In this document: piece by piece, positions 41,604-48,284 of the stretch | Position numbering within the stretch: position 1 is the first letter of the stretch | Layout: every line of letters starts with the position of its first letter | Source: an uncultured Chloroflexia bacterium | Lineage (GTDB): Bacteria; Chloroflexota; Dehalococcoidia; DSTF01; WHTK01 | Direction: 5' to 3' | Length of the DNA: 64,000 nt | NCBI GenBank assembly: GCA_963731765.1 | Contig: CAVSWS010000041.1 | Coordinates: 77,691-141,690, forward strand | Notes under the pieces: generated by a model | The model's database searches: none | What the model was told of the DNA's origin: nothing | What the model saw: only the letters and a program-made list of their open reading frames with translations | Position numbers and translations under genes: made by a program

Positions 41604-42482
41604 CTAATCGCTTCCTGCGTCTGACATCGCGTGAAAGCCGCTGATGATCTCCAGCAGCGCGTTCGTCTCCGAGATCTGGCGTGCGCGGTTGGCGTCCAGC
41701 GTTAGCTCTTCCAGCAGATGGCGCGCGTTGTCTGTCGCCAGGCGCATAGCAGCAACACGCGCCAGCTCCTCGCTGATCGCCGACTCCACCACGGCCTGAT
41801 AGAGGTCGATCAGCACGTGCTCGACCACGAGATGCTGCAGGACGTTCGGCGCGTCGGCCTCAGGCCGCACGTCCAGGTCGCGCCGCACCTCGCCCTCGGG
41901 CGTCTCGATGGGCTCGACGGGGTAGAGCTGGCGCGTAACCACCTCGTACTGAAATCGATGCGCAGGGGCGTTGTACATGACGACGAGCTTGCCGCAGGCC
42001 CGCTCCTCCATCAGGTCCAGCAAATCGATGGCCACCTGTTCTACGTCGGGATACGCCGGCAGGGCAAAGGTCGGCATCGGTGATTCGTACGCCAGCGTTT
42101 CGCCCGCCGCCCGGAGCAGGCGTTGGCCCTGGCGCCCCAGGCACACGAGGACCACCTCGTCCTCCGCCGCCTGCAGCCGTCGTAGCTCAGACCGCACTCG
42201 ATTGACCAGGTGCTGGTTGAAGGCACCGCACAGACCGCGCTCCGATGACACGGCGACCAGTACCATACCCCCGGTCGCATTCGCGCTGTTATCGGGGCGC
42301 TCTGCGGCTTGCAGCACGCCCAGCAACGTTTCGAGGCTCTCTGCGTAGCGCCGTAGTGGCTCCAGCCGCGTCCCAGCACGGCGGTAATCGATCTCCGCAA
42401 TCGACCGCATCGCTTCCAGCAGCGGCACAACCTGCTGGATGGCGTGCTGGTGCCCTCTGATCGCATCGTAGTCGGCTGTCAT
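41604..42482 (-). CDS. atpG: ATP synthase F1 gamma subunit
   Basis: Start at 'MTADYDAIRGHQHAIQQV', aa 71 of the over-extended track ORF. This start overlaps the atpA stop by 4 bp. C-terminal 'ISEELARVAAMRLATDNA...ITLDANRARQ...ISGFHA'. Confidence 0.9.
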   Translation of the reverse strand: MTADYDAIRGHQHAIQQVVPLLEAMRSIAEIDYRRAGTRLEPLRRYAESLETLLGVLQAAERPDNSANATGGMVLVAVSSERGLCGAFNQHLVNRVRSELRRLQAAEDEVVLVCLGRQGQRLLRAAGETLAYESPMPTFALPAYPDVEQVAIDLLDLMEERACGKLVVMYNAPAHRFQYEVVTRQLYPVEPIETPEGEVRRDLDVRPEADAPNVLQHLVVEHVLIDLYQAVVESAISEELARVAAMRLATDNARHLLEELTLDANRARQISETNALLEIISGFHAMSDAGSD

Positions 42483-44011
42483 GCGCCGCTGCCCTCGTGC
42501 TCGCCCGCCGCGGCCTTCGCCGTGTCCACCCACTGCGACAGCTGGGCTTCGAGCTCGGGTGTGACCTTTTCGGCCGTACTTGCCAGCGCATCGACCTCGG
42601 GGTAGTTCACCGCCAGGGTGCGCAGCGCCGCCTCGAAGTGGGCCACGCCGTCCGGCTTCATGTCGTCCAGCCGCCCCGTCTTCAGCGCCCACATCTCGGC
42701 CACCTCGACGGCGAGGGGCACGGGCTGCCGTTCGTCCTGGCCCAGCACGGCGGTCAGGCGTTCACCCCGCGCCAGCTGGCGTTGAGTCGCCTCGTCCAGG
42801 AGCGTTCCGAAGCGCGTAAACGTCTTCACCTCCTGGTACTGCGAAAGCTCCAGGCGCACGTTTGCCGCGGCGTCTCGCAGCGTCCCGGGCTGCGCGCTGC
42901 CACCCACGCGTGACACCGACAGCCCCACGTCGACGGCGGGCAGTTGCCCTTCGGCGAACAGCGTCGCGTCCAGGTAGATCTGACCGTCCGTCATCGAAAC
43001 CAGGTTCGTGGGTATGAAGCCGGAGAAGTTGCCTCGCTGCGTCTGGATGATCGGCAACGCCGTCACGGAGCCGCCGCCGAGCGACTGGTTCAGCTTGAAG
43101 GCCCGCTCCATCAGGCGGGCGTGGGCGAAGAAGATGTCGCCGGGGTAGGCCTCGCGAGTCGGCGGGCGTCGCAGCAGCAGCGAAATGCTGCGATATGCTT
43201 CCGCGTGCCGCGTCAGGTCGTCGTACACGATGAGCGCCGGCCTGCCGTGGTAGGCGAACCACTCGGCGATAGCGCAGCCCGCGTACGGCGCCAGGTAGCG
43301 CAGGGCCGCCGGCTCCGAGGCGTCGGCCACGACGACGACTGTGTGTGCGAACGACCCGAGGCGATGGAGCTCGTCGCTCACCTGGCGCACGGAAGACCGC
43401 CGGGCGCCGATGCTCACGTACACGCAGACGATGCCGGTGTCCTTCTGGTTGATGATCGCGTCGATGGCCAGGCTCGTCTTGCCGGTCTCGCGGTCGCCCA
43501 GGATGAGCTCGCGTTGGCCCCGGCCGATCGGCACCGCCGCGTCGATCACCTTGCAGCCCGTGAGGAGAGGCTCGCGCACCGGCTCCCGGTCCAGCACGCC
43601 CGGCGCCTCTTGCTCCACCTCGCGCCACTCCGTCGCGCCCAGCGATGCGCCACCGTCGCGGGGCTCTCCCAGCGGGTCAATCAGCCGGCCCAGCACGGCA
43701 TCGCCTACGGGCACGCTCGCCAACCGGCCCGTCCGCAGTACCGGCGAACCGGCGCTGATCCCGGCGTCTGCCCCGTAGAGCACGCAGCCGACCACTTCGC
43801 GCTCCAGGTCCAGCACCTGCCCGTGCGTGCCGTTTTCGAACACGACGATCTCGTTGTTCGCCACGTCCGGCAGTCCGGACACGCGTGCCACGCCGTCGCC
43901 CACGCTGATCACGCGGCCGATGTCCTGTACCGAGGGCGAAATCTGCATCTCGCCGGCGCGTAACTCGAGCCGGTCCAGCATCTCCTCCAGGCGGCGCTCC
44001 ATGTTCGTCAT
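42479..44011 (-). CDS. atpA: ATP synthase F1 alpha subunit
   Basis: 510 aa. P-loop 'GDRETGKTSLAIDAI'. Full-length alpha homology. Confidence 0.95.
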   Translation of the reverse strand: MTNMERRLEEMLDRLELRAGEMQISPSVQDIGRVISVGDGVARVSGLPDVANNEIVVFENGTHGQVLDLEREVVGCVLYGADAGISAGSPVLRTGRLASVPVGDAVLGRLIDPLGEPRDGGASLGATEWREVEQEAPGVLDREPVREPLLTGCKVIDAAVPIGRGQRELILGDRETGKTSLAIDAIINQKDTGIVCVYVSIGARRSSVRQVSDELHRLGSFAHTVVVVADASEPAALRYLAPYAGCAIAEWFAYHGRPALIVYDDLTRHAEAYRSISLLLRRPPTREAYPGDIFFAHARLMERAFKLNQSLGGGSVTALPIIQTQRGNFSGFIPTNLVSMTDGQIYLDATLFAEGQLPAVDVGLSVSRVGGSAQPGTLRDAAANVRLELSQYQEVKTFTRFGTLLDEATQRQLARGERLTAVLGQDERQPVPLAVEVAEMWALKTGRLDDMKPDGVAHFEAALRTLAVNYPEVDALASTAEKVTPELEAQLSQWVDTAKAAAGEHEGSGA

Positions 44012-46627: not shown

Positions 46628-48074
46628 CGTCGCTCCCTTCGTGTCCCTCAGCCTCCAGGCGGGCGGCCTTTGCGATTGCTTCCTCGATCGTCCCGACCAT
46701 GTAGAAAGCTTGCTCCGACAAGTTGTCGAGATCGCCGGAGAGCAGGCGCTTGAACCCCTTGATCGTGTCCTCCAACGGCACGAACACGCCCTTCAGGTCG
46801 GAGAATTGCTCCGTCGTGAACAGCGGCTGGGTGAGGAAGCGCTGGATCCGCCGCGCCCTTTGAGCGATGCGGCGCTCATTCTCCGAAAGCTCCTCGATGC
46901 CCAGGATGGCGATGATGTCTCGCAGTCCTGCGTAGTGCGCCAGGACCTCTCGCACGCCGCGCGCCACCTCGTAGTGCTCCTGACCCACGAGGGTCGGCGA
47001 TAAGAGCCGTGACGACGACGCCAGCGGGTCGACGGCCGGGTACAATCCCTGGCTCGCGAGCTCCCGCGAGAGCACCGCCACGGCATCGAGGTGGGCGAAC
47101 GCGCTGGAGGTGCCCGGGTCCGTGATGTCATCGGCGGGCACGTAGATCGCCTGCACGCTGGTTACGGAGCCGAGGCTGGCGTTGGTGATGCGCTCTTGCA
47201 GCGCCCCCATCTCTGAGTCCAGCGTCGGCTGGTACCCCAGCACGGACGGTACACGCCCCAGAAGCGCGCTGACTTCCATGCCAGCCTGCACGAAGCGGTA
47301 GATGTTATCGATGAACAGCAGCACGTTCTTGCGCTCGCGGTCTCGGAAGTACTCCGCGATCGTCAGCGCGGTGGCCGGCACCCTCAACCGCGCGCCGGGC
47401 GACTCGTTCATCTGGCCGAACACGAGCACCGAGTTGGCCAGCACGCCCTGCTCCTGCATCTGCAGGTAGAGCTCGTTCGCCTCCCGGGTACGCTCGCCCA
47501 CGCCCGCGAAGATCGCGACGCCGCTGTGCTCGCGGACGGTGCGCTGCATCAGCTCGATCACGAGCACGGTCTTGCCCACTCCGGCGCCGCCGAAGAGCCC
47601 CGCCTTGCCGCCGATCGGCAACGGGACCATGAGGTCGAGCGCCTTGATCCCGGTGACGAAGGGCTCCGTGGGCGCCTGCTGCTCCGTCAGCTTGAGTAAG
47701 TGGCCGCTGATGGGCTGGTGCTCGGCCTCGTCCAGCGAAGGCCCGTTATCGATGGGGTGGCCAAACACGTCGAGCACGCGTCCCAGGGTGGCGTCGCCCA
47801 CGGGCGTTGTCAGCTCCGCGCCGGTGTCAGTCGTAACGAGGCCTCGCCGCAGGCCGTTCGTGGACGAGAGCGAAAGGCACTGCACCACGGTCTCGCTCAG
47901 GTGCGCCTGCACCTCCAGCACCATCGGCGCCTTGCCATCGCGTTCGACGTGGAGGGCGTTGTGTACCCGGGGCAGGCTACCCTGGGGATACTCGACCTCC
48001 ACCACGACGCCTCTCACCGCTGCGACGCGTCCGCTCGTCTTTGTTGTCGTGGTCCTGTTTGTCGCGTTTGTCAT
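46608..48074 (-). CDS. atpD: ATP synthase F1 beta subunit
   Basis: Start taken at '[27 protein letters not shown]'. P-loop '[15 protein letters not shown]'. DELSEED-region equivalent '[15 protein letters not shown]'. Confidence 0.95.
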
Positions 48075-48284
48075 CGGTGAAGCACACCTGCCCAATCGAT
48101 TCTACGCTTGGCGGTGTCGGCGCATCCGCTGCCATTGCGACCTTGCTTGGGGGCCCGCTTGGCCCTTGCATTCGCCTATGCATGCGATTGAAATTCGTTC
48201 GGTTCGCGAGATAGGCCGCAAATTAACCCGGTCTAGATTCGTTTGCCGCTATGATTTCGTACATGTGGTACGCAGAACGGGGCC

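Follow-up and report, generated by a model that had tools for sequence, protein, structure and literature searches.

The DNA analysed here (the window) is a 64-kb stretch from an uncultured Chloroflexia bacterium. On its minus strand, at 41604-48095, lie eight co-directional genes for a rotary ATPase, in the order atpD-atpC-atpQ-atpB-atpE-atpF-atpA-atpG. The gene set was read from a six-frame list of open reading frames (ORFs), from Pfam and NCBIfam, and from independent gene calls on identical ENA contigs; Pfam, NCBIfam and the gene calls agree on the following features:

46608..48074, minus strand: atpD, F1 beta subunit; 488 aa from the gene-caller ATG, the ORF reaching a TTG at 48095; PF00006/PF02874/PF22919
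46229..46627, minus strand: atpC, epsilon subunit; 132 aa; PF02823, E 1e-17
45973..46197, minus strand: atpQ ('gene 1'), small membrane protein of AtpZ/AtpI-like type; 74 aa; PF09527 at 42.9 bits, cut-off 26.6
45318..45992, minus strand: atpB, a subunit; 224 aa; PF00119, E 2.4e-47; essential Arg present
44779..45321, minus strand: atpE, c subunit as a tandem double hairpin; 170 aa from the GTG at 45291, probably 180 aa from the CTG at 45321
45058..45291, minus strand: hairpin 1 of c; Gln20, Glu53-Ser54-Leu55, Tyr58, loop RQP
44782..45039, minus strand: hairpin 2 of c; Gln112, Glu145-Ser146-Leu147, Tyr150, loop EQP
44008..44769, minus strand: atpF, b subunit with a fused delta-like C-terminal domain; 253 aa; PF00430 at residues 8-138, PF00213 (OSCP) at residues 172-248
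44026..44256, minus strand: the delta (OSCP) C-terminal domain inside atpF; PF00213, E 1.3e-8, profile positions 97-171 of 172
42479..44011, minus strand: atpA, F1 alpha subunit; 510 aa; PF00006/PF00306/PF02874
41604..42482, minus strand: atpG, gamma subunit; 292 aa from the ATG at 42482; PF00231, E 5.5e-54

The catalytic motifs are intact in the translations (P-loop GGAGVGKT in beta, GDRETGKT in alpha, LAIRLFGN in the a subunit) and, by their coordinates, consecutive genes overlap by 20 nt (atpD/atpC and atpQ/atpB) or by 4 nt (atpF/atpA and atpA/atpG). Neither Pfam nor the gene calls place a separate atpH gene in the operon, no further ATPase genes occur elsewhere in the window, and matches in a promoter/terminator scan were no more frequent than in shuffled sequence. 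A preliminary description of this DNA had reported the gene order, the atpQ-like gene, the overlaps and the lack of atpH, all correctly by these three sources, and the PF09527 match of the small membrane protein is significant at the scores listed above. Although there is indeed no separate delta gene, delta is not simply missing: b residues 172-248 match the C-terminal half of OSCP/delta. The N-ATPases of Dibrova et al. (PMC2881411) likewise have delta partly fused to b.

As far as sequence can show, a one-stalk F-type motor is complete here, with no part missing or damaged and the tandem as the only c gene: there is an alpha3beta3 head, gamma, epsilon, one kind of b with a delta C-terminus and an a subunit with its essential Arg. 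We consider it quite probable that the window encodes a complete, intact F-type rotary ATPase of a distinct lineage that shares the operon plan of the N-ATPases (beta-epsilon-AtpQ-a-c-b/delta-alpha-gamma). We label this lineage C2, defined by the order D-C-Q-(R')-B-E2-F(b-delta)-A-G and by a tandem c of ~180 aa with Gln, Glu, Ser and Tyr in both hairpins.

The c gene is a single uninterrupted ORF, in which a linker of 12 residues joins two PF00137 hairpins. The preliminary description had noted Q...ES..Y residues, with Leu in the place of Thr, in 'both copies' of c; Gln and Glu-Ser-Leu-x-x-Tyr do occur twice, but in the halves of one fused protein and not in two genes. This tandem, the operon's most unusual trait, had not been remarked on. 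Such a fusion could be an artefact, either because an assembly or sequencing error merged two neighbouring atpE genes or because the gene is a decaying pseudogene, and related long-read assemblies do show frameshifts in the operon (in the beta gene of locus L002 and in several genes of locus L004). We find this explanation hardly credible: (i), the open frame is identical on three independent contigs, on which exact look-up finds the same c protein (P0001). (ii), searching among 5.8 billion proteins gave 564 c homologues, most of them ~180 aa long, and the more than 500 fused proteins come from JGI, ENA, NCBI and Logan assemblies as well as from the finished plasmid of a cultured archaeon. (iii), conservation extends over the linker and both hairpins, each hairpin having invariant residues of its own and, (iv), the protein is modelled with high confidence as a single four-helix fold. 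Recurrence, conservation and identical contigs effectively refute an assembly origin of the fusion. The frameshifts themselves lie at 7217-8681 in L002, a conspecific contig whose beta gene is split, and at 9280-12781 in L004 (a, b and alpha); they are probably long-read assembly errors rather than signs of pseudogenes, because the window and locus L001 are intact.

Across 120 aligned family members, neither hairpin varies in the Gln, Glu, Ser and Tyr of its ion site. The position equivalent to 'Thr67' is Leu in hairpin 2 of all 120, while in hairpin 1 (residue 55) 63 members have Gln and 56 have Leu. The two hairpins also differ without exception in their loop, EQP in hairpin 2 versus RQP in hairpin 1. 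The RQP loop motif touches gamma/epsilon in known F-ATPases, and the C2 ring would keep its arginine in alternate loops only. The duplication looks single and old, since hairpin-1 and hairpin-2 sequences group separately (among 31 members, hairpin 2 forms one clade with 93.5% bootstrap support and hairpin 1 a clade with 44%) and the two halves of one c protein are just 52% identical. An AlphaFold2 model of c consists of four long helices (predicted local distance difference test, pLDDT, 95.3). Its best match among solved structures is the double hairpin of Acetobacterium woodii c1 (4BEM_J, template modelling score 0.76), followed by V-type proteolipids; c1 is also the best sequence match among solved structures.

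The start of atpE deserves attention of its own. A conserved N-terminal stretch, SESWFHVAV, lies in frame upstream of the gene-caller GTG (window 45289-45321, minus strand) and can be reached solely from a CTG at 45321-45319, which overlaps the atpB stop codon as CTGA, or from an ATT at 45318-45316. One JGI relative has been called from the same Leu codon as this CTG, and many relatives have been called too short, at 156 aa. The conserved stretch implies that atpE may use a non-canonical start or translational coupling.

The C2 plan is common to the window and seven other loci (L004, L005, L084, L086, L088, L090 and L100). The closest genomes are metagenome-assembled genomes (MAGs) of uncultured Chloroflexia from Danish soils, L004 with a c protein 93% identical and L005 with one 75% identical; the flanks of L005 differ from those of the window, and flank conservation ends with L004. 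The operon, fused c and b-delta included, also occurs in a Candidatus Binatia MAG (L084), in a Methylomirabilota MAG (L100), in two further metagenome lineages (L086/87 and L088/89) and in Salinigranum marinum, a haloarchaeon in culture, on its 321-kb plasmid NZ_CP100463.1 (L090; 289281-296093 of the record), where atpE measures 549 nt and beta is 59% identical. Those beta homologues of 64-73% identity that carry a name belong to Chloroflexota, Methylomirabilota and Binatia. The flanks vary by host, and genes of mobile elements are frequent in them: the archaeal plasmid has an ISH3 transposase together with a MazF toxin-antitoxin pair, L100 a serine recombinase, L088 a DDE transposase and L087 phage genes. 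Among the archaea sampled by a 2023 survey, F-type (N-ATPase) genes were present in Methanosarcina only (PMC10656485). In the annotations of PGAP and JGI the C2 genes pass for ordinary F0F1 subunits. The alpha subunit had no match in an exact look-up; for beta, the best match among 1.84 billion representative proteins was 56% identical, a figure that is uninformative because the F-type betas all fall together when clustered at 50% identity.

The nearest outgroup, both in the trees and by beta identity (60-63%), consists of operons from five MAGs of Chloroflexi/Anaerolineae (L098, L099, L101-L103), which we call An-type. They share with C2 the gene order, the b-delta fusion and NCBIfam scores that stay below the cut-offs of the TIGR N-ATPase models, but all five have a single-hairpin c with a helix-1 Glu. 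AtpQ is recognised by Pfam in three of these operons. Every one has a small ORF at the AtpR position, with a weak PF12966 match in L098 alone. Four of them also carry, between atpA and atpG, a gene for a PII-like receptor of cyclic di-AMP (PF06153, CdAMP_rec):

L098, 15623-15976: PF06153 gene
L099, 15635-15973: PF06153 gene
L101, 15789-16094: PF06153 gene
L103, 15792-16082: PF06153 gene

The presence of this gene suggests that the An-type ATPase may be under cyclic di-AMP control. No description of An-type operons was found in the literature searched.

The preliminary description had likened the gene order to that of the N-ATPases, and much of the layout agrees: beta and epsilon come first, AtpQ is present (though it is not exclusive to N-ATPases), atpH is absent and b is long with a delta C-terminus. 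C2 as a whole also resembles the N-ATPases in its patchy spread across phyla, its copy on a plasmid in an archaeon and the divergent AtpR of some members. Membership of the N-ATPase family as defined is not supported: the window lacks AtpR, its subunits fall below the curated cut-offs and the trees place it in a clade apart from the N group. AtpR has been called the 'tell-tale sign' of an N-ATPase operon (Dibrova, Galperin & Mulkidjanian 2010, PMC2881411). Searching with c also recovered about 70 loci that are classical N-ATPase operons of the order D-C-Q-R-B-E-F-A-G with a single-hairpin c, and AtpR was detected in 55 of them.

That no AtpR is recognisable in the operon, as the preliminary description had it, is upheld. 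Hidden Markov models (HMMs) built from classical AtpR and from C2/An-type proteins, as well as PF12966 and TIGR03165, find no AtpR in the window, the two HMMs having been run on every frame, while each of the four models finds the control of Synechococcus PCC 7002; nor is there room for atpR, because atpQ overlaps atpB. Three other C2 operons (L005, L086 and L100) hold an ORF of 90-100 aa, encoding a membrane protein, between atpQ and atpB:

L005, 9005-9313: AtpR-like ORF
L086, 9062-9331: AtpR-like ORF
L100, 12078-12350: AtpR-like ORF

The classical-AtpR HMM, PF12966 and TIGR03165 do not recognise the ORFs of L005 and L086. A profile of the C2 and An-type ORFs from this position nevertheless retrieves proteins annotated as PF12966 or PF03899, matches classical AtpR in hhalign with 86.7% probability (E 4e-6, both membrane arginines aligned) and, as an HMM, finds the PCC 7002 AtpR at E 4.5e-8. 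The ORF of L086 is without the second conserved arginine. From these comparisons AtpR was probably ancestral to C2 and lost in the lineage of the window and in L084, L088 and L090.

The curated models for 'alternate F1F0' enzymes (TIGR03305/03324/03306/03322/03321/03323/03166) set the subunits further apart from the N-ATPases. The control N-ATPase, that of PCC 7002 plasmid pAQ7, passes the cut-offs for the three subunits tested (alpha, a and c). The window beta scores 651 bits on the generic TIGR01039 (cut-off 463) and 594 on the N-ATPase model TIGR03305, below its cut-off of 752; alpha scores 641 on NF009884, 608 on TIGR00962 (cut-off 484) and 565 on TIGR03324, below 750. Passing the atpA/atpD equivalog models does not discriminate, as the control N-ATPase alpha passes TIGR00962 too. 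The a subunit fits NF004481 best, with 230.7 bits (a true N-ATPase a subunit reaches 318), and obtains 202 on TIGR03306, below 302. The best model of b is that of the N-ATPases, TIGR03321, matched over the full length (4-247 onto 3-243 of 246) at 137.8 bits against a cut-off of 224.7. Gamma and epsilon match the N-ATPase models poorly (83.5 bits on TIGR03323 versus 282, and 29.4 bits versus 100), and c, at 149 versus 131, passes solely as the sum of its two hairpins. The best models for alpha, a and c (NF009884, NF004481 and NF009998) score very highly on true N-ATPase proteins as well, and beta, gamma and epsilon score best on generic F models. The membrane sector thus appears N-like in sequence, and beta, gamma and epsilon generically F-like.

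The c subunit separates the two groups as well. It is a covalent double hairpin in C2 and a single hairpin in every N-ATPase locus examined, and helix 1 always carries Gln in C2 versus Glu in most N-ATPases. The combination of helix-1 Glu with ES(T)xxY, attributed to 'nearly all' N-ATPases, is not found in the window, although it is a soft marker, as 8 of the 55 AtpR-positive operons have Gln. In those 55 c subunits (loci L007-L083), the EST motif occurs in 31 and Glu-Ser-Leu in 3; wherever EST is lacking, the residue in the place of Thr is hydrophobic or small. By their sequences, then, N-ATPases are far from sharing the 'full Na+ ligand set' throughout. Hairpin 1 is 54-55% identical to N-ATPase c and 48% to the cyanobacterial type, which discriminates weakly. 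One further locus, L025, from an Ectothiorhodospiraceae MAG, has the end of a canonical operon (alpha, gamma, beta; 1-3099) ~4 kb upstream of an N-type operon on the same strand (6915-13423; order D-...-B-E-F-A-G), in which AtpR was not detected.

Phylogenies were built by neighbour joining, with alpha and beta each rooting the other, 100-200 bootstraps and two simple distance corrections. C2 forms a clade with 96-100% support for alpha and 52-91% for beta across runs. The classical N beta clade, supported at 91-99%, is without C2, and C2 joined N in 0-25% of replicates, 13% being the maximum in one set of runs. The a-subunit tree has three clades, with C2 closer on average to N (1.16) than to F (1.52); trees of gamma, epsilon and b were too noisy to separate the groups. 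It is therefore quite unlikely that the window holds a bona fide N-ATPase in the sense of Dibrova et al. (2010), acquired laterally as a second enzyme and Na+ exporter, whose missing AtpR is a minor loss. Such an enzyme would account for the gene order, AtpQ, the missing atpH, the long b-delta, the best models of a, c, alpha and b, the identity of hairpin 1, the distances of the a subunit and the classical members with a helix-1 Gln or Glu-Ser-Leu, and the copy on an archaeal plasmid recalls the N-ATPases of Methanosarcina or of cyanobacterial plasmids (PMC2881411). It does not fit with the absence of AtpR, with cut-offs missed by all subunits except c as a two-domain sum, with the poor gamma and epsilon scores, with the trees, or with the lack of any fused c in the classical N-ATPase loci sampled.

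Could the operon instead encode an ordinary canonical F1Fo enzyme, the principal one of the organism, with the order, the b-delta fusion and the c duplication as lineage-specific rearrangements within Chloroflexota? Alpha and beta do pass the generic equivalog models, beta, gamma and epsilon fit generic F models best, and the weak sister position to canonical F and the chromosomal setting, both described below, favour it too. However, the canonical bacterial operon has a separate atpH and the order atp(I)BEFHAGDC, and the window has neither; the plan is not the trait of one lineage, as unrelated phyla and a plasmid of a haloarchaeon carry C2 operons too; the most closely related operons are N-like, having AtpQ and an AtpR-like gene; and flanks are not conserved past the closest relative. 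In the trees the proteins fall outside the canonical F clade, a placement that the preliminary description had left to be checked, and the clade forms without C2 in 78-100% of bootstraps. We consider this explanation unlikely.

Several points nonetheless weigh against a distinct and mobile lineage. The canonical F sample comprised 12 taxa and was without canonical enzymes of Chloroflexota, cyanobacteria and Deinococcus. The deep branching is weak, C2 grouping with the An-type in 20-62% of replicates and the two together with canonical F, rather than N, in 47-76%. The operon lies in a chromosomal region near housekeeping genes, its GC content is that of the surrounding window and its flanks are fully syntenic with those of L004, as expected of a vertically inherited core gene set. 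Finally, the open-access literature, to which the search was confined, yielded no account of C2 or of any F- or N-type operon whose c is a two-site tandem, and subscription journals may hold one; a genome paper on Binatota says no more than that an F-type ATP synthase is present.

A distinct C2 lineage also stands apart from the other systems to which it bears a resemblance. The c1 subunit of the A. woodii F1Fo enzyme (4BEM_J) and the V-type proteolipids (Enterococcus hirae NtpK and eukaryotic c) are four-helix double hairpins like the C2 c, but one of their hairpins no longer has its carboxylate (in c1, Glu has become Gln), so that the number of sites per hairpin is halved, whereas the C2 protein keeps both Glu53 and Glu145. 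In A. woodii, c1 is a minority beside the single-hairpin c2/c3; in C2 operons the fused gene is the sole c. Fused c proteins with a c1-like Glu-to-Gln change were also retrieved (L006, L011, L021, L029, L057 and L066), and those found sit in canonical operons of Clostridia and Desulfovibrio. At 28% identity, the C2 and c1 duplications are independent as judged from the sequences. The A1AO ATP synthase of Methanothermobacter has a duplicated proteolipid, a double hairpin with both ion-binding carboxylates, but it is an archaeal A-type enzyme with a different stator and no kinship to C2 at the operon level. The Bacteroidota F-type operon (atpDC-x-BEFHAG; Parabacteroides, L092; Bacteroides fragilis, PMC4154653) resembles the window in placing beta and epsilon first, in its small membrane gene and in the lack of AtpR; it differs in a separate atpH, a short b, a single-hairpin c and its clustering with canonical F. 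Membership of that type is ruled out by its atpH and short b.

A picture of the C2 rotor may be proposed. The ring would consist of n double hairpins and hence offer 2n ion sites, an even number. Each site would lie between neighbouring hairpins, so that intra-subunit and inter-subunit sites alternate, and the cytoplasmic face would likewise alternate between RQP loops (hairpin 1) and EQP loops (hairpin 2). With every site retained, a lower ion/ATP ratio would not follow from the fusion by itself, in contrast to V-type enzymes or A. woodii c1 (PMC9171764). As to the coupling ion, the hint of Na+ in the preliminary description has proved weak, the water-holding Thr being replaced by Leu. The c17 ring of the Burkholderia pseudomallei N-ATPase, with Glu-Thr-Met-x-x-Tyr, had been predicted to bind Na+ and was shown to be H+-specific (PMC5376962). 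Because that ring is also hydrophobic at 'Thr67', we favour H+ as the fairly likely coupling ion of C2. Three facts speak against H+ and leave Na+ a less probable but serious candidate: all four direct Na+ ligands (Gln, a backbone carbonyl, Glu and Ser) are formally present in c, half of the family has Gln at 'Thr67' of hairpin 1, and one of the hosts is extremely halophilic.

The role of the enzyme is more finely balanced. The archaeal plasmid copy, the patchy phyletic spread and the mobile-element flanks favour an accessory, transferable enzyme, and we lean slightly towards a laterally acquired ion pump or conditional synthase; Salinigranum marinum presumably owns an A-type synthase. Against this, the window's operon is chromosomal, native in GC and syntenic with L004, and the view that C2 is the sole ATP synthase of the organism has a somewhat less than even chance. 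An N-ATPase in the sense of Dibrova et al. (2010) is always a second enzyme, next to an F-type (canonical) or A-type ATP synthase; the 64 kb of the window hold no ATPase genes besides the operon.

The surroundings of the operon were described beforehand as housekeeping genes, and leuS (23199-25748), polA (58402-61695) and a sigma-70 gene (38174-39451) do lie in the window, but the sigma factor alone is near the operon. Directly downstream, on the opposite strand, lies a gene for a HEAT-repeat protein (40679-41515), and the same strand holds two universal stress protein genes (39572-40156 and 40176-40598) beside the sigma-70 family gene. The arrangement at 38174-41515 is conserved in L004 and hints at a stress-related neighbourhood. 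Further away, a sortase gene comes after the gene of a large surface protein (34051-36870) whose domains are DUF11/CLIPPER, SpaA_4 and DUF7619; the locus as a whole (34051-37832) is a pilus or surface-anchoring locus of Gram-positive type in a Chloroflexia genome.

The composition of the rotor ring sets the ion/ATP ratio of every rotary ATPase, and the duplication of c is a textbook step dividing ATP synthases from V-type pumps. A broader proposal, possible but rather doubtful at present, is that C2 forms an unrecognised and horizontally mobile third F/N-type branch, spread over soil Chloroflexota, Methylomirabilota, Binatia and a haloarchaeal plasmid, whose rotor, built solely of two-site double hairpins, is the postulated pre-V-type intermediate; that, with the An-type, the N-like plan would be ancestral or far more widespread than the classical N clade; and that C2 is perhaps the sole ATP synthase in some Chloroflexia. 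If so, the duplication that precedes carboxylate loss, a postulated step toward V-type proteolipids, would have been caught in a bacterial F-type background. Independently of this proposal, the 'N-ATPase' operon plan reaches far past the curated N-ATPase family, and archaea have received a second kind of bacterial F-type operon. A large natural family with a two-site tandem as its sole c may serve as a test case for an even-numbered ring size imposed by covalent pairing and for alternating, non-equivalent ion sites, and, AtpR having been lost in many members, for whether a tandem c could stand in for the assembly role of AtpR/AtpI. With a cultured host, Salinigranum marinum ZS-10, genetics and biochemistry of such an enzyme should be feasible.

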